A DNA stretch of 59,484 nucleotides, filler included, from Jimgerdemannia flammicorona (Eukaryota), in the NCBI GenBank assembly GCA_003990765.1. It is 3 parts of 3 records of this genome, joined end to end, with 100 filler letters (N's around TTAATTAATTAA, not from the genome) between each part and the next. Parts side by side here need not be neighbours in the genome. Positions count along the whole stretch, not along the records: positions 39,729 to 59,484 come from RBNJ01001857.1; 2 more parts are not named here. One strand, written 5' to 3'. Position numbers and translations under genes: made by a program. The notes under the pieces are model-generated. The model saw nothing but the letters and a program-made list of their open reading frames with translations, had not been told where the DNA came from and made no database searches. Of this stretch, positions 20,375-59,484 are shown piece after piece (position 1 is the stretch's first letter; every line of letters begins with the position of its first letter).

Positions 20375-20393
20375 CGGACTCAAAAATTGACTC
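20332..20393 (-). mobile_element. Tiny poly(A) retro-insertion with a 14-bp target-site duplication
   Basis: tcaaaaattgactc at 20332-20345 and 20380-20393 flanks T27 + aacggac. Confidence 0.65.
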
Positions 20394-24998: not shown

Positions 24999-25111
24999 GA
25001 CAATATGCCATTCACACATTCGTGCGTGCCAATGGGGTTTTCGAGTCAGGGTGGCTTAGATATTACTCGCGCTCCTAATGTACAAATCCAACTCGCTCAC
25101 CCGTGCCCGAA

Positions 25112-27834: not shown

Positions 27835-28047
27835 TGGTGGCTTATGATGGTTGGTTGTGCGAGGAACGGCTTCTTTTTATGTACATAAGAGGTTGGAGTA
27901 ATGGAACCACAATTTACAAACTGAGCGCAAGAGCGATCTGCAAATATATATAGCGAGTTTTCGCGAAGATATTTTTGGGACACTAGCCCATTATACAGTC
28001 TAACATGACAATATTCCCCAACTCAAAGAACAAACTCAACCCTCATC

Positions 28048-29571: not shown

Positions 29572-29620
29572 GGCTTGTTTCAATGAAGCGCTTGGAGGAA
29601 CCAAGCGGCGAACTTACAAA

Positions 29621-29661
29621 ACGCGTACTCACGTGATCATTTCTCCGTTTCTGATTGGCCA
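29621..29661 (-). promoter_or_regulatory. RTT109 proximal promoter with MCB (ACGCGT), CACGTG and CCAAT-like boxes
   Basis: ACGCGT at 29621-29626, CACGTG at 29630-29635 and ATTGG at ~29654-29658, 50-90 bp upstream of the ATG. An MCB fits G1/S expression of RTT109 in yeasts. Short motifs can occur by chance. Confidence 0.45.
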
Positions 29662-36500: not shown

Positions 36501-39500
36501 AAAGCTGTACCACCGTGCGACCTCTTCGGGGTTTTCTACGGCCAGCGGAGATCCTGTGGACCGGACAATGGCCTCTGAGCACGCAATCTCAATTAGATTC
36601 TGCTTGCACTTCTCAAGCATTTCTGCCTTGTCCGAGACTTTCCCCCAGTTCGAATGTCGCATGACAAGACAGCGGAGGGTGTTATCACCGCAGTATCCGA
36701 CGAACATGTCATACACGCCAAACATTTTGCCATGTGCTGAGATTTTGATGGCCCATGTAGCTAGCTCCTTGACCACAGCGGAGTTTTCTTCATTCAGCAG
36801 CGAATCCCATCCGATCCTCTGCTTTTCGAAACGATTTAGGAGGGGAGGGTCGGCATGTTCCACTGCGCTTTGATCCATTATAACGATGCATCTGAAATCT
36901 TCATGTACGGGACACATAGGGTTCGCGAACTCGCCTGGATTTTGTTGATGAAAATTATTATTTTGAGTCCTCTTCAACTTTTAGTGATATAAAGAAAAAT
37001 AGTCATAGAAATTTACGAACCTAATGCAACGCGACAAAAGTTCTTTTGATCCTTCCCACTGCCGACGCTCGTGTAGTTTTTGTTCCAGAGATCATAAAGA
37101 GATCCTAAATTGAGCGGGATAAAGTACGTAGTGATGATTAAATACTCCACATTTTAGATTTCTCATTCGCAAAGGCGAAGCATTACAATCGTTACCGTAG
37201 ATGATATCCAAGTCTTTCAAAATGACAGGCCTCCCTTCTTCAACACATAGCAGGATTTTGTTGAGGACGCCGTATGCATAATTGCTGCTATCTTTATCGG
37301 CCGGGAATTGTGACCCATACATGACTTGAGGGGTTTTTCGCGTCCAGGATTCATGGGTGAAGGCGTTCGCCAAGGTGTCTATGGTTAAGTCACTGTCCCC
37401 AATGGCCATGAGGTGGCGCGCATCGGGGTCTCCAAGACTGGCACGAATGCACTCGAGAGCTTGAGGAAATCTTGGGACCTCATTCTCACCATTCAGATGT
37501 TTCCCTTTAAAAATGGCCCGTGGGAAAAACATATTGCACAACATCTCAGGACTCTCATCCCCGCCAGAAAAATTGCGCGCGACAGCCTCTTGTACCGCTG
37601 CTGGTGTCAACTCCGCGTCACCTCGACCAAGACTTTTGACCAGCGCATAATAGTCCCGCAGTCCGTGAAAATTCTGAATCCGCTGATGCTGTTGATATTT
37701 GTCGTATCCTCTGGCCAGGGAGTCGAGAGCATTCTCTGGGAGCCTCACCGTCATCAGTCCTTTTGTAGTCTCCTTGACGTCGTTAATGTCCTGTCTTGGC
37801 CTTTGAATGCGAATTGCGCGCGACATTTTGGAAGCTGGTTTTCATTAGATTAGTAAGTATATTTTAGAGGGAGTATAATTTAAAGAAGGTACATTACACC
37901 CTGACGTGCGCATCTAGCCCCTTCTGCAGAAAAGGAGAGGATATGGTGGACAAAATCTTTGAAACTTACCGTCAAGTCGCCAGTTACTTATTCCAATCAC
38001 AGCGACTTCAGGACAGGCGTCGGGACCTTGCGGCTCCAGAAGGGCATGCAGAACCTTGAGGGGGTTGAATGGGCTCGTCTCGGCGAGGCCGACTAATAGT
38101 TTTGGGGTATTCTTTATTGTATCTGATCTGGATAAAGAAAAGATAATTGTAATTATATTAACAAGAAACTTTACCTTCATCCAATAAGACCACTGCTCTT
38201 GAAGGAAACCGATCAGTATTGCTCTTCTCCTGATAACGCTCAGCTTTTTTGAAAACTTTGATAATGCCTTCAGAAGTCGATGATGTTGATCCTTGATGCG
38301 GAATGACATAAACCTGGAAAAAGCCAAAGTTCTGTCAAGGCTCCGGAAGAAAATCAATTTTTATTGACGTGCGAAACCAGTGAAAGTGCAAACCTGAGGG
38401 TGAGTTTGAAAATACTGGTCGGATGAATCAAGACCGCGTAGATTTTCCTTCACAATTTTTATCGCCAGGCTCTTTGACGCGCCAGGCGAACCGATGAGGA
38501 AAAGCGGGGTACGGGTCAGAATGCAAGCGATCATAGAGTGTACATTCTCAAGGAGGGCCTCGTTGAGCGCCGTGAATGCCGGTAGTCGCATGCGGTGCAG
38601 GTAGTCCAATTGATCCTGGCGCACAATCTGAAGAAAATCGTCAGGACTGAGTACCATACGATGTTTACTGAGGAACACGCCACTGATAACGGAGCGATAT
38701 TTAGCGCGGTCTTTTTGTTCACAAAGTCTACCCTGGTACGCAATTGAAAGAGCGAGGACGATGGCGCGGACGTCGCTGAACTTGTCTTTTTTTGGTGGAT
38801 ATTCGGAGCATTTTGCAGCGGTACAAGTTTCTCGGTGAAGTTGAGACTTTTCTTTTCGTGCAGCCGACTTGAGTTCCTTATCAAAGAAATTTGCAAACCG
38901 GATAGCCCGCTTGACGTCACGAAGGCTGACGCTATACATATCCTCAACCGAACGGATGAATCTTTGCGACTCGAACAGCAGCTCAGCAAATAGAAGGACA
39001 ATGGCAGATGGTGCCGGCGTCGCTGTTCCCGAAACATGTCGTCCCATAGTGAGGCTATTCGCCATGATATTGATGTATGCCTTCTCATCCCTTTCCTCAA
39101 GTGTGCCGTAGTCCCAAATGAGATCAACCATTGCCTCGGGAAGCGGATGGACCTGATAGACGAGCTGACTTTGTTCCTGATATCGAGTTTTCAAACCGGC
39201 GTCGTTCGTAATGGTTTTTCGCAAACGATAAGGATTGCATGCAGCCATCAGTCGAATATTTGTATGGATCTTGTGGCCCAATAACACACGATCGCATATC
39301 AGCGATGATAGCATCCGGATGTAGTTGCAAGTGTTCACTTCGTCCAAAAAACTGCCGATCATCAATGAGTATGATTAGAAAACAAACCGTGAACATGTTT
39401 TTCAACGAAAAGATGTTTTAATTTCCTTGGAGGATAGCATATACTTACACCCAAACTTCGCCACGCGTTGCACGTTCCTCTGCGTCTTCCATGAACTTGA

Positions 39501-39588
39501 TTATCCTTTCCTTTGTTATACCTGCGTGCAGGTCAAGCACAGCGAAGTCAACTTCTACCATATTAGCAAGGAATCCAATGAGGGATGT
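30573..39588 (-). CDS. RNF213: RNF213/mysterin-like giant AAA+ ATPase / RZ-finger E3 ubiquitin ligase (5' part missing at contig end)
   Basis: Ten exons join in frame via GT-AG introns (~39588-39449, 39351-38394, 38313-38175, 38092-37970, 37835-37196, 37104-37021, 36934-35800, 35709-33373, 33286-33223, 33119-30573; ~2700 aa). RNF213-type motifs in order: VFLDEVNT, AACNPYR, LVYQVHPLP..IWDYG.L, VSLRDV.R, ALLENV..PLFLIGSPGASKSLA, VVLLDEVGLAE.SP.NPLKVLH.LLE, IGISNW.LDASKMSRA, FHGLRDYY.LVK, GSQFP.D, SLYDLWN.NY, VHEDFRCIVI, PLLNRFEK, then the RZ finger. The symbol denotes homology, not proven orthology. Confidence 0.93.
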
Positions 39589-39628
39589 CTGTTCGATTAA
39601 CAAAATGCGGAAAGGGATCAAGTAAAAA

Positions 39629-39728
39629 NNNNNNNNNNNNNNNNNNNNNNNNNNNNNNNNNNNNNNNNNNNNTTAATTAATTAANNNNNNNNNNNNNNNN
39701 NNNNNNNNNNNNNNNNNNNNNNNNNNNN
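39629..39728. other. Artificial contig-joining linker (N44-TTAATTAATTAA-N44)
   Basis: Identical to 19768-19867. Confidence 0.97.
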
Positions 39729-39883
39729 TAAAACAAAATGGCATTTCATTGAGTAGGGGTGGGGGGGAGAGGGGGGTCCTCCTAGGGGAATTGGATGAGG
39801 GGTGGGCTTAATGTATTTATATGGGATAGATGGATATTAATAAAGGAAGGAGTCCAAGAGACAATAAAAAAAAAAAAAAAAAA
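39729..39883 (+). mobile_element. 3' end and poly(A) of an L1/Tx1-type LINE inserted in the Gypsy 5' LTR
   Basis: ...GPPRGIG* followed by taataaaggaaggagtccaagagacaat(A)n matches the 3' end of the LINE at ~47670-47794. Confidence 0.85.
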
Positions 39884-41320
39884 CTGTGAGTCATTATGAC
39901 CACAGTTCAGGTATCTTGAAGAATATAAAAGAAGGATCAAGGAACTGCAGTAGCAGCAACTCAACAAAACTCACTAATCTCAAAATAGCTCAAAGACTTA
40001 CTATAAATAAAATGCCTGCTACTCACCAAATCTCAAGGTCAAGAAATCACCAAGGCACCTCAGTTGAAGAAAGGATGTTCCAAGACATCAGAAGAGCTAT
40101 GAGGACCTATACAAGAAGGACTCCTAGCCTCAACCTGGGTACTGCAGATCCTTATCACTTTATTCTCTACTGCTGTGAAATGGAAATAAGGATCACTATT
40201 GCTACCAAATGCCTCTAAATGTAGCAGGAGTATAAAATAGGAAACTTTCTCTGCTGGAAGTTCCCACAGGCCAGCCTCCAAGAATTACAAGATACCACTC
40301 CCATAGATATATGACAGCTAAGAAGATTCATCAGATCTTCAGGCATGTACCATAGTCAATCCCCAACTTAGAGTATATTAAAGTCTCAGATTTCAGAGAT
40401 CTGTCAGCCTACCATATCAATGCACTAGAAGTCAGAGTGACTACAGAAGCCCAGTCTACCATCATCCTCAACAGTGATAAAGTAGAAGACTTCTGGTATC
40501 CCATCTTCCAGGACAATTCAGATCAATTCCTGCAAAGATTGATCTCAGTATTCCAAGGCCCAAGCATTCAGGTTTGACCTCTCCAAGACCCCACATTTAT
40601 TCCCTATTTTATGGAAGAGAACCTCATAGACTAGAGAGCCCCAGACCTTCTTGTTCCCACTGCTGCCAAATGTGATGATGTCATCAGTGATAATGTCACC
40701 CTGCATGATATACATATATGAAGTATATAAAATATATGATCTATATGATGAGACTGAAACATTTGCAGACCTCATCTCCTTTGAGGATAGTGATAACAAG
40801 GATGAAGTCTCTATAGTTCTGAACATTCTGCTCTAAGTTCTTTAGTTATACTGAATTATGCCAGCATCCTTTTTCTATATAACAGCTGTTCCTCTACTGG
40901 TATTCTGACCTTGTGACTCAGAATTATTCCAGCATCTTAAACCTATGCAACCATCTATACTGACCCTGGAACTTGGCAGTTTTCTATACTCCAGCATTTT
41001 TATTGGTTATTGGAATTTATATTTAGCTTTATATCTTAGCAATCATTGAATTATATTTTATATAAATACCCTTCTTATTTTCTCTGAAATAAAGTCAGTC
41101 AAGTTCACTTATATACACTTCCTTGTAAGCAATCTAAGAAATAATAAGACAGTTTAAAGATAAGAAGTTTGAGGACTATAAGACCTTAGGAAGGTACTCA
41201 AATAAGAACTTGCTTATAACAAACTTGAGTTAGTCTAAGAGATACACCTTGAAGAGAATCTGATATATTTGAAGGACTCTGTGACCACTATATGACAACT
41301 TGGTGCCCATTGGCTGGTGA
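39884..41320 (+). repeat. 5' LTR (5'-truncated, ends ...TGACA at 41297) and primer-binding site (TGGTGCCC..., ~41301-41320)
   Basis: TATATAAA at ~41059, AATAAA at ~41088, and a terminal CA followed by actTGG. Homologous to 53015-53955. Confidence 0.7.
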
Positions 41321-41893
41321 TTCAAAACAAATCCCTCACTTTCAAGCTGAAAAATGAACAACCACCACAACAACTACCCTGACTACAAGAGTCACCTCTG
41401 TAAGAATTCAAGATAAAATAGAAATGTACCCCCCCACATTCTATGGATATACTACTAAAGAGTCAATCCTGACCTTTATTGAAGACTTTGAACAATTTGC
41501 TACTGTATGAGTCTTTAGTGTGGATACACAATTGGCCCTTCTACCAGTCAGTCTCAGAGGACCTGCCAGAGATAGGTTCAATGCAGTCACTATTACTGAT
41601 GCTGATATAGCCAAACTTACCAACATGAAGGCCTTTCTCAGAATAACATACTATACTAAAGAGATCAAGTAAGCTCTCAAGGATCAACTCAATATTATTT
41701 GCCAGAGACTCAATGAAGATCCCAACTCATTCTATACCCAAATCTGCTATCAGATTGTCTTAGCTGACTATGATAACTGCCTCAAGGAACAAATAGCAGA
41801 TTCAACCTTCCTCAAAAAAGTTCACCCTGAAATTGCCCTAACAATCCAGTCTACCTCAGCTATACTGACCCTTGATCAGAAAGTGATCTTTGT

Positions 41894-44800
41894 TACCATT
41901 CAGATTACACAACCTTTAGAGGGCACTCACAACATCATTTTTGGAGAAAAGAGACTAACAATATGGCAACTGACAGGCAACCTGAGGTGTGTACTGGGCA
42001 GGGTGGCCCAAGTACTTTCGACTGGTAGCAGGTGGAGAGAGGCCCAGGCCTGGGGGGGGGTATGAGGGGGCTGCTGGTGGGTGGATGTAGAAGGGGTAGA
42101 GGTGGTGGCAGAGGCTCCAGATCTGGGAGAGTAAGCTTCATAGAGATGGTGAAGGGGAGACAGCAGGTATCAGGGCTGGAGGGCTGGCTGAGGAAGGGTA
42201 AGGAGACCAGGAAGGTGACAGTGTAGGCAGGAGCAGCCCTTGGAAGGGGGGGCAGTGGAGCTGGGGGAGTAGTGGCTGGGGAGAGTGTGACTGCTGATAG
42301 TGATAGGACTGTCAATCTGGAAAAAAATCCAGATGTGATAGCTGATGGTGAGGCTGAGCAGCTGAGGCTTAGAAGACAAGGGGACTTGGTGGATGGTGTA
42401 ACAGGTCTGGCAGTGGCCCCATTGCTCAAAAAATCAATTTCGGTATTCGCAGTTACACTGTGCTTCTGGGCCTAGTGGTGACAGTGAAAATGATGCTGGA
42501 GCTCATTGCTAAGTAGGTGGCAGGAGCTATGTCTATGAAGTTTTTGAAGGGACTGGAGGGAGTAGAGGTGGGTTTTGAGGAGGCGGCACTGCTGGAGGAG
42601 GTGGTGCTGCTGGAGGAGGCACTGAAGGTTGGATTGGTGGTTGGGGAAGTATGTGTTCTGATGGCACATTACCTGAAGTGGGATCCCAGGGTGGTCCAAC
42701 TGCTGGTGAAAGGAGTACTGATAGTGATAGTGATGGAGATGAGAAAGAGAGTTGAGGATTTCATGGCAGAATATGGAGAGGTGGTAGATATCAGATTCAG
42801 GGTCTGGGAAGGGACCTTGCTCAGAACTGGTGATGTGGATGTGAGAATTCGGCTAGCTGAGAAGGAAGCTACTGGGAAGGCAAGGGACTGGCCTTTGGTA
42901 ATAGTCTGGGGAGCAATCTTATATAAGGTGATGAGGGTGAAGGGAAGTGAGGAGGAGGAGGAGGATTTATTGGAAGCACTAGAAGAGTTGGGTAGTGCTG
43001 TAGAGAGGCAAGCAAAGGCTTGGGAGACTTTTGTGGAGTCGATGCACTTAGAGGTGGTGGATGGAAAGTGGATTCAAGTGACCAAGGAGTAGTGAGAAAG
43101 GGCTCAGAGGCATAAGAGATAGAAAGAGCTGCTGGCCAAGCTGGACAACAGACCACTGGGGGATATAAGCAAGGTGAAGGGCACAGGGGGAGCTGAAGCA
43201 AGTGTCTGGGCCAGTGAGGGGGAGGGGAAGGACAAGAAGGAGGCAGGGGAGAATAAGGAGAAGCCTAGTAATGACCCATATGCTGATGGTATGCTGGAGG
43301 TTTGGGAGGAGGACTGGGAGGGCTTCCCTACTCCTACCTCTCTTATCAGGCATGACCCGGCTTCCCAAAACAGAGTGGTCAAAGATGTGTCAATGCAAGG
43401 AGCCCAGAGGGTGCAATTTGGAGTTCTGGAGGCAGCATATGGGGGACAGGTAGTGGTGGCTGGAGAGGAGGAACTGGTGGATGTCCCAGAGGTTTGAGAT
43501 GAGTCTGCAAGCACTGGAGCTGACACCATAATGTTGGATGGAGGGAGGTTGGTGACTCTGGGGGGGAAGGAGGTGGGGAACTTACTTTGGATATGCTGGA
43601 TGATAAATAACCTGGCAGCAGAAGAGTTAGGGGAGGTAGACTTATGAGTGATGAGTGATGAGCATTGGGCAAGGATACTGCAGGGGGATGGAGTAATGAA
43701 GGCATTGAAGGTGGAAATTCTTGTGGTGTACCTGGAGGAGGAAGAGTATAAGGTAGATAAGGAGAGAGAGGCAGAGATGGCAGTCGTTGCTAGAGAGAGG
43801 GCTGAATACTGCTGGAACAAGTGTCATGGACTGCAGCTCTAGCAGGAGACATGTCTAGAATACCAAGAGGAGTTCGAGGAGAAGGCAGATGGAGAGATGA
43901 ATGAACTGCTGGCTGGATTGGAGGCTCAGAGGGCAGAAGAGAAAGAGGTGGCTGTGGAACATAATCTGGACATGGCACAGGAGGAGATGAGCATAGAGCA
44001 GTAGAGATCAATTGACAGTATAACATATTTCATTATGAACAGTATAACCAACATTTTTTCTTTAAATGTGAATGGGTTACAGGGTGCTGCTTGATGTAGG
44101 AACATTTTTACTTAGATGAAGAGATTGGAGGCCAATCTCTTCCTCTTGCAGGATGTCAGGTATAAGGATGATTCTGATAAGATAGAATGGATGAAGGAAT
44201 GGAGAGGTGTGGCGATTTAGAAGGGCAAGGTTGGAATTTTGATTTGAAAAGGCAGAGGGGAGATACAGGATGTGAGGAGCTAGGGAGAGAGACTGGTCTG
44301 GGGTGAGTGGATTCATGCAGACTGGGAGCTAGTTACCATTGGCTCCTGTTACTGCCCTGCAGTATGGGGTGAGTGGGTAGATTGGGTGAAGAGTTTACAG
44401 GAGAGTGGGATCCTTGCAGAGGCTGGGGTGGATATGCTTGGGGGAGATTTCAATATGGTTCAGGACATACTATTGAATAGAACAGATGGAGGATGAGGTG
44501 CTGAGAGCAGGAGTAGAGGACTGGTGGTATGGGAGAAAGTAGAAAGACTTAGTATGCTGGTAGATGCTAGTAGAGAGTGCTGGGGGAATAGGAGGGTTTA
44601 TACACATTGGGCAGGAGGTCTGGGAACAAGAATCGACTGGATTTTAATGGCCAGCTGCTAGGGCCTAGATGTTTGGAAGTCACTGGAGGTGGAATGGTGT
44701 CCATGGTCGGATCACTGGGGGCTTTTGGGACAGGAGTGCTTTGGGGGAAGTGGGGATGGACCTGGACATTGGTACCTCAATTTCTCTTTGTTAGATGACA

Positions 44801-47754
44801 AGACCCGGTGGGATGAGTGGGCTAAAGACATTTAGCTGAGGATGGAGAACTGGTGGTGGGAAGGTGCCTCAGTTGGGGTTCAGTAGATGAGGATGAAGGA
44901 GATGGTCAAGATTTACTGGAGTGAGGCTGGTAAGGAGGCAGGGAAGCAGAGAAGGTGAAGAGTGCATTGGGCTTCTACTAGATTAACTAGACTCCTGGAG
45001 GAGTGGGCAAGGCTGACAATATTGGAGAGAGAGGAAGATTGGAGATTAATGAGGGCAAAAATGGAGGTTGGGAAATTACAACAGGTGCTGCAAGAAGAGA
45101 AAGAGGCAAGGGTACAGAGCTTGGCAGCATAACTTCGCTGACAGGATCTGGAGGAAGGGGAGAGGCCTTCCAAGTTTCTTACAAGGACCCTTAGGGCAAG
45201 ACAAGTACAGCAACAGTGGGAAGGGGTGTTGGACTCAGATAGTATATGTACTGGTACATAGTGTATAGGACATTCTTGGATCGCTGAAGGAGAGATGGAG
45301 TGGATTGTGGAGTGAGGAGGAGGGTGGGGCAGATGCTGCTACCATTGACTGAATATTGGAGGATTGGCACCCACCACAAGTTGAGGGGCTAGGTGACCTG
45401 ATGATGCCTGTACAGGAGGATGAGATCCACCAGGTTCTTGCTGTGACAATGCCAGGTACAGCGCCTGGGGAGGATGGTCTGCCCTGGGACTTTTGGAAGT
45501 GAATGGTTGGAGTCCCAGAGGTGATGGGGGAGATGGCAGTATTGTGCAACTTTATTCTATAGATAGGGAGGTGGGTGGGGGAGCAGGACCTTGGACTGGT
45601 GATACTGCTTTATAAAAACAAAGGAAGGCAGGAGGATTGGAAGAACTGGCAGCCGATGATGTTGCTAGATATGGACAGAAAGTTGGTAACTAAGGTGGTG
45701 GTGGCAAGACTACAGAAGGTGGTCCAGCAAGTCGTGGGTGTTGAGCAGAGGGGATTTGTGGGTGATCAGCTCATTAGGGATGGCACTGCCTGGGTAAATA
45801 GAGTTATTGAAGGGGCAAGGGCCTATGGACTGGATGGGCATCTAGTCTTCTTGGACCAGGAGAAGGCTTATGACCGGGTATGAAGAGTCTGGCTGGTGAA
45901 AGTTTTGGATAGAATGGGGGTTCCATACTAATTCCGGTCAGCAATGGTCAGCCTACTGGAAGGGAGTAGGGCTGTATTCATGTGTAATAGACATAGAGGG
46001 GTAGCATTCCCCTTGGGTAGGGGGGTGCCCCAGGGGGACCCACTGTCCCCCATTTTGTATGCTCTTTCCCTAGAACCTCTTATGGACAGAATTAGGCAGA
46101 GAATAGCAGGGCTCTCTGTCTTTGGCATTGGATAGAAAGTTGGGGCCTTTGCAGATGACATGATGGTTGGTTTGGGTTTGATTGCTGATGTTGAAGAGCT
46201 CAAGAAGACTGTGGAGTGGTATGAGGAGAACTCTGAAGCTAAGCTGAATTGGCATAAGTGTGAAACAATGGTGCTAGGCAATGGCCTGGAAGGAGGAGAG
46301 GTTATAGGAACAATCATCCCCACTGGTGAAGCAGTATAGTACTTGGGTATCTATTTGTTAGTCTATGGGTCAGTTCTGCCCAGGCTTTGGTGGAAGCAGA
46401 TGATTGAAATCTGGGAGGAGGCCCTGCAGAGTTGGGGGGGAAGACAATTTTCTCTGGTAGGGCAGGTCTCGATTTTGAATGTCTACTGGCTGCCGAAGTT
46501 GTGGTATCTGGCATATCATCTGGACTTCCCTGCCTGGGTGGTGAAGAGATTGATGAAGTCAGCAAAGGGATGGATTTGGGCTGGCAGGCAGAGTCAGATT
46601 AATTGGGAGACCTTGTCCCTATCAGTGGTGAGAGGTGGTCTTGGGCTGGTTGACTTTCCAAAATAGTTACACTGCTTGAGAGCATGGTGGCTAAAGAGGG
46701 CAGTGGAATTGTGAGAAGGTGGTTAGATTCCTCTGCTGCAGAAGATCTGGGAGAGGTAGTCATTGCTAAGAGGCTCAACTGGCGATCTCCTCTTATTGGT
46801 TGGACTTCAGAATACTGAACAACTGCAATATAAGGGATTTTGGTGGGGGATAGTAGAAGGGGTGCACTGCATTGGAATTTGTTAGCAGGGAAATGAAGGA
46901 GAGGTGGCTTGGGACCTGGTGATGTGGAGATGGGATCATATACTGCTGGGTGGCACTCCTTTAATTGAGTTTGACATTGGTGATGGAATGAAATGCCAAA
47001 GGGGACCAGGCCAGGATCTGTGGCCTAGCGGTTGGCAAGGAGTTGGAATTGGCAAAGAGTGGAACTGACATGGTGTTTGGACCTGGAGTGCCGCAGTGAA
47101 GAAGTGGATGCTGCTAAAGTACTGGGTGGTCTGGTGGCACATGCTGTGGAGGAATATAATGCTCAACTTTCGCTCAGGGCACCTTATCATAGGGGGTTGC
47201 TTCGACTGTGAGGAGTGCCATAATGTAGGGCAGGAGGGGGATTATGTACAGACACCTGAACATTGGCTAGGAGAGTGTAAGGTGTTGGGGGATTTTTGGC
47301 AGACAATTGGGGAATGCTTGGGGGTATGGCATAGGGGAGATGAAGTATGGGGGAGGTGGGAGGACTTGAGGGATAGATTGGTAGGGGGGATAGAGATGGA
47401 GTGGCTTACTTTGGGCTGGGCTTTGACTATTTGAGTGGGGCTGGCCAGTTACTGGCTATTTGTTTTTGAGGATAGGAGGAGATAGGACTTGGGGGATCAG
47501 TTGTTGTGGTGGCATAGGCTTATGGAAGACACCTTAACAGGCTGGTGGCTTGGTTGGGGGCTGTAGAGTGGTCAGAGGTACTGCTTAGTAGAGAAAATTT
47601 GTGGACAGAGTAGGGGGAGAGTTAGAGTAGTTGATGGAAGGGTGATCTTTGTTCATAAAGAGGTGGGGAGGGGCCCCCCTATGGGGATTGGATAGTGGGT
47701 GGTGGTGATGTATACTTATTCATAGACTGGTAATAAAGGTAGAGTCCAAGTGAC

Positions 47755-47796
<42 letters not shown>

Positions 47797-47805
47797 GATC
47801 TTTGT
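41894..47805 (+). mobile_element. Apparently full-length L1/Tx1-clade LINE (~5.9 kb) with poly(A) and a 14-bp TSD
   Basis: TSD aaagtgatctttgt at 41880-41893 and 47792-47805. Removing the insert restores the gag frame (QKVIFV/QRYWTAR). ORF1 relic at ~42030-44020, ORF2 from 44035. Confidence 0.93.
44035..47695 (+). pseudogene. LINE ORF2 (APE endonuclease, RT, C-terminal Cys/His knuckle), stop-interrupted
   Basis: SLNVNGL, LLQDV, GGDFN, RIDWIL, SDH; APGEDGL, WQPMMLLDMD.K, QRGFV, LDQEKAYDRV, GVPQGDPLSP, FADD, YLG; C..C...EHWLGEC. Confidence 0.92.
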
Positions 47806-49417
47806 ACAGAGATATTGGACTGCTAGATACTCTGCTGAACACTCAATAGAGAAAATAACTGGCATCAAGATAGAGCCATCAAAGCCAACTAGTATCATAT
47901 CTACTACAGTTATAAACAGACAACCATCCCTACCTACCCCCAAGGCAGCCAAAGCTGACCCAGTGGAGGAACTCACCAAGCAGTTTGCTGAGATAACTGT
48001 ATATCTTGGTGATATTGTTAGAGAAGTCTGAAGTACCAACAGGAGACCAGTACAGAGATTTGCAGCTGCTACAGAAGAATATAATATCACATACTTCAGA
48101 TGTAAAGAAGAAGGCCACTATATAAAGAGTTGCATGACTGAAATAAGATGCAAAGCCCAACCAAGCAATGCTAGCAGAATCAGAGAACAAATCAATGCAG
48201 TAGTCATCAAGGAGATTGGTAACACTGATAATAAAGAATACTATAAGAAACTTGAATTCTACCCTGCTACTAAAGATACCAGAACTCAGTCCAAGTCCTA
48301 TGACAAGAAGAGCAACAGCAAGTCAGTTAGAAGACCAAAGAAGACCCCAGCTATCACTATTCAAAGCAAGACCCAATCTGAGAAGATTGATCAAGATATG
48401 GAGTTAAATAAAGCTGCCTACCAAATCATTGAAGGCACTACTCCAGTCTTAGTAGAAAGTGAAAGCAAGAAGGAATAGAAGCTGCATAAGACTAAGATCC
48501 ACTAGTATGATATCTACAAGGACCTCAAGAAACAGAAGATCAATGCTACTTTTGGACAGCTAGCTGAAGTTCCTGCCTTTAGACAGCAGTTAAGAGTAAG
48601 ACTTACAACTACCACCAAGAATCAAGAGTACAAGATTATAGAAGCTCACAATGTATAAGAAGATGATCAAGAAGACTCAAGTGAAGAATCTGAAGACCAG
48701 TACAAGACATCAGCCTATACTCCATATCAGATTGAAGATTATATCTTTGATATTATCATTGATACTAGTGCTAGAGGATGCCTCATGAGTAAGAAGACAA
48801 TTGACTGCCTAGGCTGAGATATTGAAGAGTCCACCAAGATAGTCTATATCATAGCAGATGGTATACAAGCTACCCCTCTTGGCAAAATCTGAGAAGTCCC
48901 TATCAAGATAAGAGGAGCTACCATCCTAGTAGATGTGATTATTATAAGTATCACCAACTATGACATCCTTATTAGCAACCAAAGGTCAAGGCCATCATTG
49001 ACCTCAATGCCCAGAAGATGCAGATCAACTATAGAGAAAGAAAGGTATGAGTCTTTATCAATGTCTATAAAGGAGTTCTACTAGACATAGAGGAAGGAGA
49101 TGAAGAGGACACAGAAGTCTTCATGTACTCGATGAACAAGAATAAGAACAAGACACTCAAGCTCACAGATGAGCAGTAGTACAATAAGATTATTGATGGC
49201 TATGCCTCTCAAGGAAGATGCCCCCATGGTACTAGAATATACTACTCTGAACACCTGAATGACTGCTGGTCCTATATTAGTGAAGTCAGGAAAATCTGCC
49301 AACAGAAGCATAAATAAAAAGCTGCTGAAGCAAAAAGGAAAGCCAAAGAAGATGACCAGCCTCCAGAGCTTCAAGCTGATAGTGATGATGAGGAGGAACA
49401 AAAACCAGATATTACCC

Positions 49418-49827
49418 TCAAGATTAAGAAGTTTCACCCCAAAGCCAAGATCCCAGAATATAAGACTGAAGGAGCCATAGGAATGGACCTTGTCAGCATT
49501 CAAGATGCTACCCTCGAACCACAGACCACCACTCTACTTGGTACCAGAATTGGAGTCAAGCTGCCAGAGAACTATGCTGGAATTATCAAGACTAGAAGCA
49601 GTCTGGCCAAAAGTAAAATCTCAGTTGAAGGAGGAGTAATTGACTCTGATTATACTGGTAAGATCTTTCTCATAGTCAGAAATCACAACTCCACCACCCC
49701 ATTTGAAGTCAAGAAGTATAACAGGATTAGTCAGATGCTGATCTATGAAATTAAGAAACCCAAGATCACTAAAGTCATCAAACTCATCAAGATCAAGAGA
49801 GAAGAACAAGGCTTTGGATCTACTGAA
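49418..49827 (+). pseudogene. dut: Trimeric dUTPase domain within Gypsy pol, between PR and RT
   Basis: All five motifs present: GMDL, RSS, GVIDSDYTG, RISQ, R..QGFGST. Confidence 0.93.
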
Positions 49828-52580
49828 AGAGGAGCCTATACTGCTACCAAGATTACTGAACTTGAATACAAGAAAGATAGGGACCAGAACAAGCACATAT
49901 ATACTATTGGAGAAAACTTTCCCCTAGAAGAATAACTTCTCAAGATTCTACACTAGAATAAAGAAGTACTTACTACAGACTTCAGAGATATCCACAATCA
50001 AGAACTCAAGTACTATCATGAAGTTGATACTGGTGATACTAAGCCCATCTACCAGAAAGCCAGATTTATACCACCTGCTTACAGAGAATGGCTGCAAGCA
50101 GAACTTAAGGAAATGGAAGAAGCCAGAATCATCAAGCAAGCTATCAGTCCCTGGGCTTCACTCATTGTCCTTACTCTGAAGAAAGGAAGCAAGTCTGGAG
50201 AGTTTGTGTCAAGACTCTGCATTGACTACAGAAAGCTCAATACAATCACTAAGAAGGATAGGCAGCCCTTGCCAAATATTTAAGAAATTCTTACCACTCT
50301 TGGAAGCAAAGCCAAATACTATACTACCTTGGATCTGTTCTCAGGCTCCAATCAGATTAGTCTCACTCAAGGTACCAGTGAGAAATCAACCTTCATTATA
50401 CCTGATACTACCTATATCTACCTATGAATATCATTTGGAATATACAATACCCCAGCAAGTTTTCAGTAAATGATAAACAGAGTCTTCAGCAATGAGATTG
50501 GAAAATAGCTCTTTGTCTATGTTAATGATGTGATCATCTTCAGCAATACTGTATGGGAATATATCAACCATATACAGCTAGCCCTCAAGAAGCTCAAGGA
50601 GCATGACCTCTACATCAAGTCCAAGAAGTGTAAGTTTGTAGCTCAGGAAATTACCTACCTAGGACACCTCATTAACCAGACTGGAATCCATACAGACCCT
50701 ATGAAGATTGAGGCTATTGCAGCCTACCTGAGATCCAGAATAACTACAGAAGTCCATGTCTTCCTTAGACTAGTCTCCTACTACAGAAGATTCATCAAAG
50801 GATACTCCAATATTGTAGCACCTATCTACAAGCTACTCAAGAAGGAGACCAAATTCAAATGGACCAAGAAATACCAAGAAATCTTCAATAAACTCAAGAC
50901 CAGGTTGACCTAAGTACCTATTCTCAGAAGACCAGATTGGAACCTAGAGTTCATCCTGTAGACAGATGTAAGTGCTATAGGACTTGGAGCAGTCCTAGCT
51001 CAGAAGAAAGATAGACATGAATATGATATCTCTTATATAAGCCAAGATACCTGTGGAGCAGAACAGAACTATGAGTCATATAAGCTCAAATATTTAGCAG
51101 TAGTTTGGACAGTAGACAAGTTCCACTACTACCTAGCTAGAAAACACTTCACCATTCAAACAGACCATTCTGCTCTTACCTGGCTATTCCACACTCTGAA
51201 CCCTAAAGGAATATATGTCAGATAGATCTATAGGCTGCAAGAGTATAACTGTACTGTCAAGCACTGCTTAGAAAAACCAACACCAATGCTGATGCACTCT
51301 CAAGGACACCCCAAAACACCTCTATTAAGACTATTCAACATAAATAAAGAGTTATACTATGGATTAATTAGCTATCTTAGATAGCAGAAGATACCCAACC
51401 ACCTCAAACCCTAGATAATCACTATCATTAACCAGACTTAGAAACAGTTTGAACTAAACAATACTATACTTAGAAAAGGAGGAAAGCTTGTAATATCTAA
51501 ATACAAGAAGTATTAAGTAATGAAGGAAGTATACAAACAAGAATACCTAGGAGGAACCAACATATATGACAAGGCAAGAAGAACTATATGGTGGCTTAAG
51601 ATAGAAGAAGACCTGTGCCAATTTATCAAAGGGTGTGACAAGTGCCAAAAACAGAAATAAGATCAGTAAGATCAGACACCTAGGTCATCAAAAATTGAGC
51701 CTATTTCCTTCCACCATATCACAATAGATATCATTGGGCCACTACTAGTAACACTATCAGGAAACTACTATATTATAGTTATTGTAGACCTCTTTACCAA
51801 ATAGATAGAAGCAAGAGTATTATTAGAAGCTAATGTGCTCTCTATAGCCAACTTTCTATATCTGTCACTATAAGACATCAAGGCAAATCACCACAGACCA
51901 TGGCACAGAATTTGTCAATGGATTCTATGAGATAATATATCAGAAATACAAGATTCAGCACATCAAGACCACTATGTACCACTCTCAAGAAAATGGACAG
52001 ACAGAGAGAACCAACAAGACCCTCAAGAACATTCTGGCAAAGATCTCAGATACATATGAGAATTGGGATAACTACCTCTCTACTACCCTCTCTGTCCTAT
52101 AAAATATATGGTCACAGAGTACACACTTTACCCCAAGAGAACTGCTCTTCAGAAAAGAAGATTCTGATAGAACCTCAGCTACAAATCTAGATCTAACTTA
52201 GAGATAGGTTGACTCAGAAATCTGGAGACTATACCAAATTAGAAAGAAGGCTGAAGATTATATCATCAAGTCACAAGCACTGATAAGAAAGAATGCAGAA
52301 AAGAATTATAAGACTCTAGAATCCATCCAAATTAGAGAAAAGGTCCTACTGTATTAAAATATGGTAGAAGCCTCATAGTCACGAAAACTGGAGCCTAAAT
52401 GGAAAGAACCCTTCTATATATAAGATATCAAGAGAACTACCTTCTGGCTTAGAAAAATCTCAGGGACCATACTGCCTATCATGGTACATAGAAACAGATT
52501 CAAGAAGTACCATAAACCTATATAAGAGAAGCAAAAAATGATGATCACCCATGAGGTTCTAGTTCATGAATCATAACAGC

Positions 52581-53141
52581 ATGTTCCATAATCAGCAGGC
52601 TATCTGTCTAGACCATTCTCTAAGAGATACAGCACCAGCAACTACTTATCCATAAGACTTTCAAAGCCAGAGAAGTTCAAACTATCAACTGATTGATCAA
52701 GATCAGAATCAGGCCCTTACTCTATATAAAGAGAGTGACTCTTCACCATTATGCCAAAATATATAGAGAAGATATCAATCTATAAATACTACTTTTTGAC
52801 CCCTTGCCAGAGGTTATAGGATTAGCAAATTTTTCAGAACTAGACTAATGAATAAGGACATTCAAGAAGATCCTTATTCAGGAGAAAGATGTAACAGTGA
52901 CCTCAGAATGATGACATCAGCACAAGAGACAGCCTTTCCTTGTAAGTTACTAGATTGGAACACAAGAATATCATACAGCATGACTCAGGCTATGAGATGA
53001 GTAATAATAACCAACTGTGAGTTATTGTGACTACAGTTTAGGCATCTTAAGAAATATAAAAGAAGAATTAAGAAACCATAGTAGCAGCAACTCAACAAAA
53101 CCCACCAATTTCAAAATAGCTCAAAAACTTACTATAAATGA
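52581..53141 (+). pseudogene. Accessory ORF3 downstream of integrase, crossing the PPT/LTR junction
   Basis: The ATG lies 3 nt after the pol stop. One frame runs ~185 codons, with internal stops each one transition from Q/R/W codons. The 5'-LTR copy reads LEEYKRRIKELQ in the same frame. Confidence 0.45.
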
Positions 53142-53953
53142 AATATCTGCTGCTTACCAAACCTCAAGGTCAAGGAACTACCAAGACACCTCAGTTGAAA
53201 AAAGGATATTCTAAGACATCAGAAGAGCCATGAGGACCCATATAGGAAGGACTTCTAGCCTCAACCTGAGTACTGCAGATCTTTATCACTTTATCCTCTA
53301 CTGCTATGAAATGGAAATAAGGATTACTATTATTACTGAATATCTCCAAATGTGGCAGGAGTACCAAATAGAAAACCTTCTCTGCTAGGAGTTTCTATAG
53401 GCCAGCCTCCAAGAATTATAAGATACTACTCTCATAGATATATGAGAAGCAAGAACAGCTAAGAAGATTCATCAGATCTTCAGATATGTACCATAATTGA
53501 TCCCCAACTTGAAGTATATTAGAGTCTCAGATTTTAGAAATCTGTCAGCCCACTGTATCAATGCATTAGAAGCCAGAGTGGCTACAGAAGCTCAGTCCAT
53601 CATCACCCTCAACAGTGATGAAGTAGAAGACTTCTGGCATCTCATCCTCCAGGACAACCCAGATCAATTCCTACAAGGATTGATCTCAGTATTCCAAGGC
53701 CCAAGCATTCAGATTAGACCTCCCCAAGACTCCACATTTGTTCCCTATTTTGTGGAAGAGAACCTTATAGACTAAAGAGCCCCAGACCTTCTTGTTCTCA
53801 CTGCTGCTAAATGTGATGACATCATCAGTGATGATGTCACCCTGTATGACATATGTAAAGTATATGAAACATACAACCTATACAATGAGACTGAAATGTT
53901 CATGGACCTCATCTCCTTTAAGGACAGTGATGATAAGAATAAAGCCTCCATGG

Positions 53954-53955
<2 letters not shown>
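52880..53955 (+). repeat. PPT (aggagaaaga, 52880-52889) and 3' LTR starting TGTAAC at 52890, truncated by a LINE at 53956
   Basis: A purine run is directly followed by TG, and the sequence is homologous to the 5' repeat from 53015 onward. The left boundary cannot be verified because the 5' copy is truncated. Confidence 0.6.
53143..53955 (+). pseudogene. Accessory ORF4 inside the long terminal repeat (second copy at ~40012-40836)
   Basis: The same reading frame is kept in both copies: MPATHQISRSR..EERMFQDIRRAMR..HFILYCCEMEIR..ARTAKKIHQIFR..LEYIRVSDFRDLSA..FQGPSIQ. Most stops are copy-specific. About 270 aa. Confidence 0.55.
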
Positions 53956-53990
<35 letters not shown>

Positions 53991-56900
53991 GTCACTTAGA
54001 CTTCTCCTTTATTACTGCCATCTATAATAATAATAATACAATATTACTCCATCCCCTCAACCAATACTCCTCAGATCTACTTCTCTATCCTCCACTTCCT
54101 TCTACCAGAGGATAACTCAGTTGCCCACCACCTGAATCCTCCTGCCACATTTCTGAGAAATACACTGTACCAAATCCCAGCAACTCCCCCCACCCAACTC
54201 CCACCCTCTCCACCAGCCATTCCAAATATCCAGTAACAACTATTCCCAACATACCACTCTATCCCCAACTTCAACCCCCTGGCCCTCCTCAAATATATGT
54301 AATCAATGCCTGACCAGCCCAACCTATATGGCCAGAGCCCAACCAAGTATCAGCCATTTATCCCCAACCCCTCCTACAAGCCTTCAGCAGAGCTCTCCCC
54401 ATCTCCCTTCCCCTCCCTCTAGGGCTCACAGCCCTAAGCAGTCTGCAATATGGCACCAAAACACCCCTAAAATGTTATACTCATCAAGCCAATGTTCAGG
54501 CATTTGTATCACTCCCTCTTCCTGTCCAACATCTAAACAATCCTTACACCCAAAAATGCCATCAGCCACCAAGTGCTCAGACCAATAGTTCAACATCACA
54601 TTCTATCATAGAATCTGCCACCATACTATCCAGAACTTGGGGGATAGCTACTGCATCACCTGCTTGCTCTAAAGCCAGAGACCATTCCAGTTCCACTCCT
54701 CACCAATCCCAACCCTCTGCCAGGTTTCAGGCCAAAGGTCTCCACCTAAGCTCCACAAATACTCTATTCCATCACTAAGCTGGAAATCCTCCACCAAAAC
54801 ACTGCCCAGCAGTAGCCTGTCCTATCTCCACATCTGTGGTCCCCAATTCTCCTCTCCCTCATCTCTCTGTCACTGAAGTTCAATTCTCTTAGCACTATCT
54901 ACCACCCTCAACCAAAAGCCCTTATACCACATCCTCTTGCTCCCATCCATAGCCACCATCACAAGCGGGTTACCAGAAGCTCTATGGGGGGAATACCAGG
55001 CCTCTCACACCCTCTGTATAAGTAGTACTCACTCCTGGCCCCTCAGCTCACTTGCTCTCCTCAGCCACCACACTCTCAAGCAATGAAGACATTTGGTAAA
55101 GTTCACTAAATCCAGCCTGCCTCTTTCCACTGATAGGGTTAGAACCTCCCATCCTATCTGACTTCACTGCCCTGCCCAGATTCATGATCTCACCACTTCA
55201 ACAGTCTCCTAACCACCCAAGCTGAGAAGTCCAGATAATACCCTACATACCACAGCTTCAGTAGCCAATACACATTCAGCACCATCACTCTTCCTACCAA
55301 GGATATATGCCGACCACCCCACTGCAAAAGCACATTTCCCCACACTAGGAGCTGCTGTTCCCACCAAGCATGGAGCAGAAGGGACCCATACACCAAAAAG
55401 TAGATCCCCAGGTAACAAACTGGCTCTCCTGCTGGCACTATCATCCCAATCACATCACCACTAATGATTCTGCCACCTAGCACCAGAGTCTCACATTTGT
55501 GTCAATTGAGTTTAGCACTGGAGTCTCTCTCATACCATTCAACAGACCTTTGCAATTCCCCTATATCTGCCAATGAGCCCAGTCTAACCACCATGTCATC
55601 TGCAAAGGCCCCCACCTTCCAATTTATCTCTAGAATGTCCAAACCCCCAATTCGATGCTGGATCCTATCCAGTAGGGGCTCTAGGTAAAGGGCATACATG
55701 ATGGGTGACAGAGGATCTCCTTGTGGCACCCCACGACCAAGAGAAAAGGTTACACCCCTATGGCCATTGATGATAAAAGCAGCCTGACTGTTTTCCAAAA
55801 GACAGATCAATGACCTTCTGAACTTTGGGGGAACACCAATCCATTTCAATACTCTCTCTAGCCAGATTCTCCTCACTCTATCATACACCTTCTCCTGATC
55901 CAAAAACACCAATCTGCCATCTACCCCAGTAGCCTGAGCCTCTTCAATTACACCATATACCCAAGCCATCCCATCTCTGATCAACCAGCCACTGACAAAT
56001 CCTCTTTGCTCTACACTAAGTACTTGCTGAGTGATTCCCTGCAGCCTTGTCACTAGGATCTTTGTCACCAGTTTGTGGTCCATGTCGAGTAGCATGATTG
56101 GCTGCCAGTTCTTCCAATCTTTCCATCTCCCCTTATCTTTGTAGAGCAAGGAGACCAGCCCTAGGTGCTGGCCCCCAATCTAAGTTCCAGACCCAGAGAA
56201 CCTCACTACACATTTCTATCATTTTCTCCAATACCACTGCCACTTCAGCTATCTTCTTCCAAAAATCCCAGGGAAGTCCATCCTCACCCAGAGCCATCTC
56301 CTTACTTGTTATAGCCAAGACCTTACAAATTTCCTCTCCCCTCACTAGATCCCCTAGAGTCCCCAGGCCTATTGCAGGGTCCAGATGCCAATCCTTCAGC
56401 TGTCTCTCAATGTTCAAGGCATCTTCCCCCCCTTTTTCCTTGCTCTACAAATCCTCCCAACAGGTCCTCAGCAATCTCAGAATTTCTGGAGTCCCCACCA
56501 CCATCTCCCCATCCTCATCCAAGAGCCCATCCCACTGCTGCTTAGTTCTCTGCACTTGTAACATCTGCAACAAAACCCTAGTGGGTCTCTCTCCCTCCTC
56601 AAGCCTCTGCCACCTCAGCCATACCAACATCCCCTTCAGCCTAACCTCTTCCTCTCTTCATAACACCTCCTTAAACTCCTCAACTTCCTTCTGAATCCTC
56701 ACAATATGCTAGTTGGCCACCTCCCAGCCTTCTAGCACTCCTGCCCATCTCCCCAGGAGTGCCACCAATCACTGTGAGGCCCATAGCACCCTTCACTGCT
56801 GCTGAGCACACCTTCCTTTCCCTGCTTCCCTCCAGTACTCCTGAGCACTTGCTTTCAGCCTCCTCCAGCAGTTCCCAATCACCAGGCCCTGTTCCCACCA

Positions 56901-59484
56901 CCTCCCAATTTTCCCAATAACCTCCTTCTCTCAGTCCACCCATATAGCCCCATCCTCTAATAAAGAAAAATTTAGTTGCCAATGTCCAGGCCCATCCCCA
57001 CTTCCCCCAAACCTCTCCCCACCTAACCAGACCCCAGTGATCTGACCATGGACACCAAACCACCTCTAGTATTGTCCAGACATCCACTCCCCAGCATTCT
57101 GCCATCAATATCCAGTTGATCCTTGAGCCCAGCCCTGTCACCTAGTGAGTATAAATTCGACAATTATCTCAAAACTGTCTCCCTGTATCAACCAAAGAAC
57201 TCAACCTCTATATCTCCAACCAATCATCCAACCCACCACTCCTACTCCTCATTCCTCTCCCTCTATCTGTCCTGTCCATCCCCTTATTCTGTACCATGTT
57301 GAAGTCCCCCCCTAGGCAGTCAAACCCAACCTCACCCAAGATACTGGTCTTTTTCAAACTTCAAATCCAATCCACCCATTCCCCCCACTCTGCTGGGCAG
57401 TAACATGACCCAACTGTCAACAGGCTCCATCCAGGTCTCTTCCACACTCCCCATACCAACCAATTCCCCCAATGTCCAACATCCCCAATGTCTCCCATCC
57501 CCTTTCAAACCAGGATACCCACCCTCCCCATCTACACTGCTGCCCCCCCCCCATTCCTTAGTCCAATCCTATACATCCATATCTACCTCATAATGGACAT
57601 CCTGCAGTAAGAAGAGATCTGAATCCAGTCCCTTTAGCCATCCAAATATGTACTTCCTCCTAGCTGCCCCTCTTAATCCATTCATATTCAAAGAGAATAT
57701 TCTAGTTGTACTGTTCATAATGAATAATGTTTGAATTTAAGACCCCAGTTCAGTATTCCATACTTATCTCATCCTCAGCCAGATCCAAGCACCACTCTGC
57801 TTCCAAGTTACTCTGCTACAGTCTGAGCATTCAGTGCCTCCAAGATTTCTTAATATTCCACCCCATCCACCACCTCTATCTCCAACTGATAGTCTGTACA
57901 GACTACTCTCCACTTCTCCAATCCCTTTCTCAAGCCCCACAAGTATGCTGCCCAGTCATTTGCAATCCCTCTAAGTTCCTCCTCCCACTGATCATCAACT
58001 TGATATTCAACTGATTCCAAGAGAACTGCCAGGATCTCATTCCTAACCTTCCTCAGTATCTCCTCACTATGAAGGATTTCCTCCCAATATCTCTCTTCTA
58101 TAACTCTGAAGTTCTCTCCCCCCAGCTCCTCCACTGCCACCCCTTCCAGAGTCTTCCACAGCCACTTCTCCTCATCCATCACCTCTGCCATACCCTGGGT
58201 GACCTGATCAACCCCCACTTCTAGGTCCACCAAAGCACTCCTCCTCACTGACTCATCCCACTCCTCATCCAGTATATCTAGTAACTCCTCCTCACCCTCT
58301 GCCCCACCCAGGACACTATACTGAGGGTGTACTCCTTCACTCATTTCTGCATCTGCCTCTACACCACTCTGCCTCTCCTCCCTTGGTCCATCCTGGGCCC
58401 CACCTTGGGCTGCCCCATGTTTCCCTGCCCAGACACTCTTATGCAATCCCACTCTCCCATCCTCTGTGCTGCTGCCAGCCCCACTGCTGCCCAACTTCTC
58501 CAGCAGCTCCTTCTGGATCCTCCTCCCTTGTATCTTCTCCCAGGTCAACTGGTCTATTCTGATCCTCTTTCCATCAACTACTTCCACCACTGTCTTGGCT
58601 TCATACTTCTTCCAAGCCAATCTCCACCTCTCAACTGTACCTGCTAGATTCTCCAGAGCCTCAAGCAAATCCTCCCCCTCTTTCTGAGTCCCCTTTATCT
58701 GTGTGACCTTGTACTCCACCTGTCCCCACTTTAGAGTTACTGGCCAATCCCTCATCTTCCTCATGTTTTCCTTTCCAGCCAGCCTCACCCAGACATCAAT
58801 GTCACTAGTCCAGATCTCCATACCCTCCCAGACCTTGAACCTGATGTCCACAATCTCTCCATACTCCTTGACTGACCCCACAATCAACTCCCTGGCCCTC
58901 TCCCTCAACACTATAGGAAGATCCAATATCATCAACTGTACCATTTGGGGGTCCCAGTGTATGTACCTGGCCATAGAGACCACAACTCTGCCCACTGTTA
59001 CCCCCTTCTCCATGGTAGCCAGCAATGCTTCCTCTTTCTCAAACTCCACCTTGACCCCTTCTTTCCCTTCAAAAACTTCACTGATGCTGCCCCTTTCACC
59101 TCCTGCACTACCAGCTCCAAGATCATCCTAGCAGTCACTGCCAAGCCCCTGAAACACAATGTGATGGCAAATTCCAACCTTGATTTCTTAAGTAACAGTG
59201 CTGACACCATGCCTGTTACCCCATCTGCCAGGTCCCCAGACCTTGTGCACAACCCCTGTCCTGAACCATCAGCCACCATCACATCTGGATTTTTTTCCAG
59301 ATCTCCAGTCACAGCCCCATCAACAGTCACATCTTCAGCCCCTACTCCCCCTCCTCTCCTACCACCAGACACTCCCCTAGGCACCCCCCCCTGTCCCCCA
59401 GCAGTAGCCATCAACACCTTCCTGAGGCCCAGCCAACCATCCAGACCAGAGGCCATTCTTCCCATCTTGACCTTGTCTTTTTTT
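53956..59484 (-). mobile_element. Second L1/Tx1-clade LINE, a diverged relative of 41894-47805, with its 5' end cut by the contig end
   Basis: T-tract at 53956-53987 followed by atagtcacttaga (same 3' end). ORF2 at ~57718-54057 has LDQEKVYDRV, GVPQGDPLSP and AFADDM. The ORF1 relic (57850..59049) is homologous to 42517..43092. Confidence 0.93.

Follow-up and report, generated by a model that had tools for sequence, protein, structure and literature searches.

A 59,484-nucleotide (nt) stretch of Jimgerdemannia flammicorona DNA (GCA_003990765.1), hereafter the window, carries at 39729-59484 a Ty3/Gypsy (Metaviridae) long terminal repeat (LTR) retrotransposon. Downstream of its pol gene lies an open reading frame, ORF4, which represents a real, conserved orphan protein family. 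The two copies of ORF4 in the window are pseudogenes, and the Gypsy copy as a whole is a dead pseudogene. On balance, the explanation that accounts best for the data is that the element is of the non-chromodomain type, with gag, protease (PR), dUTPase, reverse transcriptase (RT), RNase H and integrase (IN), and that ORF4 is its accessory gene of about 275 amino acids located downstream of pol. Within this explanation, ORF4 is likely to lie in the unique 3' (U3) region of an LTR of about 1.5 kb. The coordinates of all features are given in Table 1.

The X-masked copy 2 of ORF4 was used as query against 5.8 billion proteins. Four of the 506 word-sharing candidates reached E <= 0.01, with E values from 5.5e-99 to 1.1e-55, and a profile search of 1.84 billion representatives returned five proteins at E <= 0.001. 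In total, the family comprises eight intact frames of 138-342 amino acids, with 29-80% identity to one of them, P0005. P0005 begins with MPA... and ends with ...LNFLL exactly at the ATG (40012) and the stop (40836) of ORF4 copy 1. P0009 and P0010 start at the same ATG, all three with MP[AP], and P0004-P0008 finish with ...LN[FI]LL at the same stop. The preliminary description had placed a second ORF4 copy at 40012-40836, and these coordinates are exact because the homologue ends fall on the ATG and TAA of copy 1. The start of copy 2 is at 53143 according to both the homologues and copy 1, rather than 1 nt past the ORF3 stop as had been proposed. The 44 codons 5' of the ORF4 ATG (39880-40011 and 53011-53142) are stop-free in frame in both copies; the other two frames of this segment carry 7 and 4 stops, counted in copy 2 only. 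Despite these stop-free codons, three ORF4 homologues start at the MP[AP] methionine.

Databases of predicted proteins hold only open frames, so the close matches to ORF4 are selected for openness. Such selection fails to explain those members with 29-47% identity whose alignments span the greater part of the protein. In codon usage, ORF4 is like gag-pol (+0.19 bits per codon, versus -0.15 and -0.35 in the off-frames). When the ORF4 alignment was searched in nucleotide collections, 469 pattern matches in metagenome_contigs and 49 in viral_contigs yielded 0 confirmed loci. A transition-tolerant R/Y pattern fitting both window copies of the ORF4 region gave 0 matches in the metagenome, genome and viral collections.

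The Gypsy element was mapped by reading all three forward frames with stops marked and by a Pfam scan. The pol matches were, in order, dUTPase (96 bits), RVT_1 (79 bits), RT_RNaseH_2 (97 bits) and Integrase_H2C2 (34 bits). The aspartic protease upstream of RT gave two weak matches (E 0.0014 and 0.0055), both below the Pfam cut-offs. The order is thus PR - RT - RNase H - IN, as in Gypsy pol, and the Ty3/Gypsy assignment with an integrase made in the preliminary description is borne out. The integrase core is 81% identical to an intact database protein, P0013, which itself carries PF00665. P0013 terminates with ...VLVHEL and the window reads ...VLVHES followed by TAA (52575-52577), so the pol stop falls at the same residue and had been placed correctly. 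No chromodomain match was found at the integrase end of pol by Pfam, nor in P0013. A search of genome_contigs with the P0013 integrase gave 61 pattern matches and 0 confirmed loci.

As first described, ORF4 lies wholly within a duplicated region. The two copies sit inside a direct repeat of about 950 nt (39876-40836 and 53007-53955) with 86% identity. Downstream of copy 1, the signals that had been described were all located: the TATA box TATATAAATA at 41059, AATAAA at 41088 and the primer-binding site (PBS)-like TGGTGCCCA at 41301. The window holds no tRNA gene to set against this PBS-like sequence. The occurrence of ORF4 after pol and again before the TATA box, AATAAA and PBS is the layout expected of a gene in the U3 of a long LTR. 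The left edge of copy 1, at 39875/39876, is the poly(A) tail of a long interspersed nuclear element (LINE) beside the joint between assembly pieces. The right edge of copy 2, at 53955/53956, is the poly(T) of a reverse LINE. Because these LINE insertions cut both sides of the duplication, the LTR ends are unreadable from the repeat pair, and so is the LTR length of about 1.5 kb that had been claimed.

A polypurine tract (PPT), AGGAGAAAGA, was found at 52880 before the putative 3' LTR, complementing the PBS after the 5' LTR. It is the sole purine run of at least 9 nt between the pol stop and 53006, and TG follows directly. From the end of ORF4 to the TATA box, where the preliminary description had seen no PPT, the longest purine run is 5 nt (40776-41058). 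A PPT would have to lie in this interval, near 40840-40900, if the window holds two elements in tandem with a shared short LTR (about 40850-41297). In such a tandem, ORF4 would be an internal ORF downstream of pol and ahead of the LTR, and the upstream ORF4 copy would come from a preceding element whose body is missing past the LINE insertion and the joint of the assembly. A lost PPT before the short LTR is not explained by hypermutation, because transitions keep purines as purines, and transversions account for only 7 of the 134 substitutions between the two repeat copies. The PPT evidence therefore indirectly favours the long LTR over the tandem.

Read depth bears on the same choice. One public sequencing run was matched, a soil metagenome (X1) sharing 0.10 of the words. 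Summed over both copies of ORF4, the X1 depth amounts to about 700-757, versus a mean of about 398 over eight internal Gypsy bins. X1 depth is not copy number, and as a rough proxy this ratio of about 1.8 fits a repeat that is present twice per element and speaks against the tandem. Tandem arrays are also uncommon. On the other side, an LTR of about 450 bp is of ordinary size, and copy 1 is cut at 39875, so pol sequence further left is possible. Additional ORFs after pol are well known (PMC7264820), which would suit ORF4 as an internal ORF. Taken together, a tandem with a short LTR is unlikely.

Several observations weigh against a long LTR that carries a functional gene. Neither LTR end is in view, and neither a target-site duplication nor a solo LTR nor another full copy of the element was found. 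For X1, no site where many molecules begin or end was reported (6 of the 959 loose ends were listed), and the LTR ends were unreadable from this run as well. The terminal inverted repeat is weak and consists only of TGT... (52890) versus ...ACA (41297). Markov simulations of the 429-nt region yield a PPT followed by TG by chance in 7.5% of cases, which also counts in favour of the tandem. The X1 depth proxy is noisy, and the bin 41047-41705 reached 938, above the prediction of the model. The intact ORF4 homologues are known as proteins without genomic context, so their own linkage to Gypsy elements is hypothetical. Moreover, no fold or family match (Pfam, PDB, Foldseek, VIA-align, Atlas) backs any function of ORF4, and the AlphaFold model of P0005 has a mean pLDDT (predicted local distance difference test) of 59.5, with 4 of the 5 models below 50.

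ORF4 could also be a host gene or an unrelated passenger, captured by or adjoining one element lineage and playing no role in the life cycle of the element. The family is tiny, its members lack genomic context and ORF4 resembles none of the retroelement protein families in Pfam, all of which would suit a passenger. In contrast, both window copies occupy equivalent positions in the element, and the X1 depth of ORF4 is of the same order as that of the Gypsy body, which fits co-amplification. The gag-pol-like codon usage and the frames that remain open down to 29% identity also argue against a passenger. These observations make a passenger quite improbable.

The frames of the element had been described as open. 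Under the standard code, they are not. Pol has 18 stops in its first 920 codons and a single frameshift near 51860, and the 139 codons of ORF3 are interrupted by 3 internal stops. Copy 2 of ORF4 has 7 stops and an ATA start codon, and its end is cut by the LINE. Copy 1 is frameshifted, with stops and with 10-nt and 4-nt indels relative to copy 2. The apparent open frames are an illusion that arises from reading through stops.

The differences between the two repeat copies consist of 127 transitions and 7 transversions. For CpG, the observed/expected ratio ranges over 0.00-0.02 in the Gypsy element and over 0.02-0.09 in the LINEs, versus 1.05 in the gene-bearing piece 19868-39628. Such a transition excess and a CpG loss confined to repeats are the features of repeat-targeted C-to-T hypermutation, either like repeat-induced point mutation or linked to methylation through deamination. 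A purine is the next base after 41 of the 71 C/T differences, versus 163 of 381 unchanged background pyrimidines. Classical CpA depletion was not seen, with CpA and TpG observed/expected ratios of 1.09-1.51. In X1, sites with A/T in the window and G/C in the contigs (A>G 542, T>C 593) outnumber the reverse (G>A 335, C>T 423). At each of the 7 stop sites in ORF4 copy 2, close homologues carry Q, W, R or H. The in-frame stops are accounted for by transition hypermutation. C-to-T/G-to-A transitions would have inactivated the Gypsy element and the LINEs that landed later, stripping CpGs and converting Gln, Trp and Arg codons to stops.

Most of the in-frame stops are TAA or TAG, which would suit an alternative code (e.g. 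ciliate-type) that reads them as sense and leaves the frames open. This has practically no chance of being right. Pol, ORF3 and ORF4 are interrupted by TGA too, and the frames remain broken under table 6. Host-gene exons of 852 and 789 codons in the same window are open in the standard code, and intact homologues carry Q, W, R or H at the stop sites. An alternative genetic code was rejected on these grounds.

ORF3 had been described as starting 3 nt past the pol stop and crossing the PPT/TGTAAC junction. Its ATG is indeed at 52581, behind the TAA at 52575-52577, and its span (52581-53000) includes the junction of AGGAGAAAGA with TGTAAC at 52880-52895; the frame itself is interrupted by the 3 internal stops. 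The low stop count leaves its status as a gene in play. The other two frames have 11 and 11 stops, and the ORF3 rate is near that of the proven coding frames (2.0 per 100 codons, versus 7.2 in the off-frames). ORF3 might accordingly be a true accessory gene, starting at the pol stop or shortly ahead of it and running across the PPT into the LTR in a nef-like manner, and the ATG 3 nt past the confirmed pol stop would suit this. However, a homologue search among proteins of 77-245 amino acids gave 1 word-sharing candidate and none that scored; this search was blind to fragments of less than 77 amino acids, and the P0013 contig is perhaps too short to include ORF3. By codon usage, ORF3 scores -0.11 bits per codon, which is not coding-like, no Pfam match was found, and conservation is not judgeable from the single copy at hand. 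ORF3 is thus without support as a gene and is more likely an untranslated spacer, and a nef-like gene at this site is doubtful. Of the genes that had been proposed in U3, ORF4 remains likely by its layout and by the PPT position, and ORF3 does not, since it is homologue-free and its codon usage is non-coding-like.

ORF4 matched no Pfam family at E <= 0.01, the window copy giving one weak match to ATG5_HBR (E 0.11) below the Pfam cut-off, and no PDB sequence at E <= 1. The AlphaFold model was built for P0005 with a 9-row alignment. Foldseek found no match to this model in PDB or BFVD at E <= 0.001. The best VIA-align wide match had an insignificant Z of 3.8, and several rows were helix-turn-helix DNA-binding proteins. 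In Atlas, the best feature score was 0.83, with a template modelling (TM) score <= 0.33. In the model, helices extend over residues 47-150 with a pLDDT of 70-92, and the ends are disordered. The first 45 residues of P0005 contain 10 K/R and 2 D/E, forming an Arg-rich N-terminus, and the last 60 residues contain 4 K/R and 18 D/E, forming an acidic tail.

Neither ORF has an Env-like transmembrane segment, in agreement with the preliminary description. The maximal 19-residue Kyte-Doolittle mean is 0.03 in ORF3 and 0.59-0.74 in the three ORF4 homologues P0004, P0005 and P0010. By hydropathy, the signal peptide or transmembrane anchor of an Env-like third ORF of the errantivirus or Athila type was not found. 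With its basic N-terminus, helical core and acidic tail, ORF4 might resemble a nuclear regulator, judging from the model and the composition. A nucleic-acid-binding or transactivator role of ORF4 is speculative.

In the proposed arrangement, the LTR would open with TGTAAC (52890) behind the PPT and extend to 41297, ahead of the PBS. The positions of TATATAAATA (41059) and AATAAA (41088) would then give a U3 of about 1.2 kb and a short R region. ORF4 would lie wholly in U3, and because the gene would be inside the LTR, each element would hold two copies of it. In live copies, the ORF4 of the 3' LTR would be carried on the full-length RNA downstream of pol and expressed from the 3' part. Alternatively, ORF4 would be transcribed from its own TATA-like AATATAAAAGAAG, which precedes the ATG by about 90 nt, and the transcript would end at the poly(A) signal of the LTR. 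No RNA run containing the stretch was found among public sequencing runs. The product may act in the nucleus on the transcription or silencing of the element. A bolder and rather doubtful possibility is that each LTR is a self-contained coding unit, in which the 275-codon ORF4 has a TATA-like promoter to itself and uses the poly(A) signal of the LTR. Both LTRs and solo LTRs would then express a nuclear trans-regulator of family transcription or of the host repeat-silencing/hypermutation machinery, as a sag- or nef-like U3 gene that arose independently in Ty3/Gypsy elements outside animals.

A few complex retroviruses are distinguished by genes that lie inside their LTRs. The sag gene of mouse mammary tumour virus (MMTV) is a superantigen ORF in the U3 of a betaretrovirus LTR. 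ORF4 would resemble it as a whole frame of about 300 codons in U3, present in both LTRs and ending 5' of the TATA box and poly(A) signal. In contrast to Sag, ORF4 has no membrane segment and shows no sequence or fold likeness to it (Pfam, PDB, Foldseek). Its carrier is a Ty3/Gypsy retrotransposon of a eukaryote that is probably a soil fungus, rather than a vertebrate retrovirus, and its position in the LTR is inferred. The nef gene of human and simian immunodeficiency viruses (HIV/SIV) and the bet gene of foamy viruses are accessory genes that overlap the 3' LTR. The likeness here is an accessory frame 3' of pol/env that reaches into U3, and ORF3, if real, would cross the PPT like nef. However, no homology to either gene was found, ORF4 lies wholly within the repeat rather than across its edge, and ORF3 is unsupported. 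No homology to Sag, Nef or Bet was found by Pfam at E <= 0.01, PDB at E <= 1 or Foldseek at E <= 0.001, the last with an ORF4 model of only moderate confidence.

Additional ORFs (aORFs) beside gag-pol are described in Ty3/Gypsy elements of plants and bdelloid rotifers in the available portions of PMC7264820 and PMC5408684, and an 'add. ORF' is marked in the figure legend of a fungal element in the available text of PMC2864245. Like ORF4, aORFs are extra and mostly orphan frames beside gag-pol. As far as these portions go, aORFs sit either in the interval from an LTR to gag or downstream of pol ahead of the 3' LTR, whereas ORF4 inside the LTR would be another placement. In the available text of PMC7264820, 'in/within/inside the LTR' and 'overlap' have 0 occurrences, and the same is true of 'into/within/inside the LTR', 'LTR region' and 'overlap' in that of PMC5408684. 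No Ty3/Gypsy retrotransposon with an ORF inside or extending into the LTR was found in the open-access literature, and nearly all literature matches for 'LTR ORF' concern MMTV. A dUTPase between protease and RT, as at 49441-49824 of the window, occurs in fungal Gypsy elements such as PosPlaTy3-5 of Postia placenta (PMC2864245, in part). Those are described as chromodomain elements, unlike the window element with its integrase lacking a chromodomain match, and the available text of PMC2864245 mentions no LTR-borne ORF.

If the long LTR is true, LTR retrotransposons outside animals would also be able to put an accessory gene in U3. Such a gene would be doubled at each insertion and could persist in solo LTRs, which would be a new route for a retrotransposon to leave trans-acting factors in a genome. 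If the tandem is true, ORF4 would be an ordinary additional ORF in a decayed element. ORF4 itself is a clean orphan family with 5 representatives in 1.84 billion and no known fold.

Table 1. Features of the third piece of the window (positions along the whole stretch)
Feature	Position	Strand	Remarks
LINE 3' end with poly(A) tail, cutting the left side of the 5' LTR copy	39729..39875	+	likeness to copy 2 begins right after the A run
Putative 5' LTR, visible part	39876..41297	+	left end missing; ends ...ATGACA, 3 nt before TGGTGCCCA
TATA-like AATATAAAAGAAG	39922..39934, also 53053	+	about 90 nt 5' of the ORF4 ATG; kept in both copies; putative promoter
ORF4 copy 1 (pseudogene)	40012..40836	+	ATG and TAA (40834-40836) match start and end of intact homologue P0005
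U3/R border signals: TATATAAATA 41059, AATAAA 41088	41059..41093	+	presumed promoter and poly(A) signal of the element
PBS-like TGGTGCCCA...	41301..41318	+	extent approximate
gag, first part	41358..41893	+	frame 2; start approximate; interrupted by LINE
Full-length LINE in gag, 5.9 kb	41894..47792	+	13-bp target-site duplication AAGTGATCTTTGT (41881, 47793); poly(A); RVT_1 94 bits
gag remainder with degenerate CCHC knuckle and aspartic protease (about 48728-48907)	47807..49060	+	weak Pfam protease
pol	49102..52577	+	dUTPase about 49441-49824, RT about 50191-50667, RNase H about 50860-51246, then integrase
True pol stop TAA	52575-52577	+	end of intact relative P0013
'ORF3'	52581..53000	+	139 codons, 3 internal stops, homologue-free
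PPT AGGAGAAAGA, then TGTAAC	52880..52889	+	putative 5' end of the 3' LTR at 52890
ORF4 copy 2 (pseudogene)	53143..53955	+	ATA start, 7 stops; last ~10 codons replaced by poly(T) of reverse LINE
Related LINE, reverse	53956..59484	-	64-68% identical to the gag LINE; poly(T) adjoins ORF4 copy 2; runs to window end

Three LINE insertions lie in or adjoin the one Gypsy element. Copies of the LINE family are located at 41894-47792 (+), 53956-59484 (-), 39729-39875 (+) and 25-132 (-). The LINE sense strand is strongly G-rich and C-poor, with a GC skew of +0.35 to +0.53 over 6 kb, and the reverse copy is its mirror image. The poly(A) tail of the full copy is about 45 nt long.

The pieces of the window are joined by linkers of 100 nt (N44-TTAATTAATTAA-N44) at 19768-19867 and 39629-39728, and the third piece starts at 39729. 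The regions 7001-8000 and 14001-16000 have a GC content of 0.10-0.16, lie between regions of about 50% GC and may be older, fully decayed repeats. A giant multi-exon host gene occupies 30573-39374 (-), with exons of 852, 789, 394, 249 and 337 codons and short introns, all open in the standard code. It ends in an RZ-type zinc finger, which at 26.5 bits falls slightly short of the Pfam cut-off of 27. The gene at 28048-29613 (-), also open in the standard code, encodes a HAT_KAT11 histone acetyltransferase that contains an acidic insert. Over the 19.7-kb third piece, X1 gives 8252 short contigs with at least 80% likeness (those shown are about 214-270 nt), which indicates that both repeat families are very abundant in at least one environmental sample.

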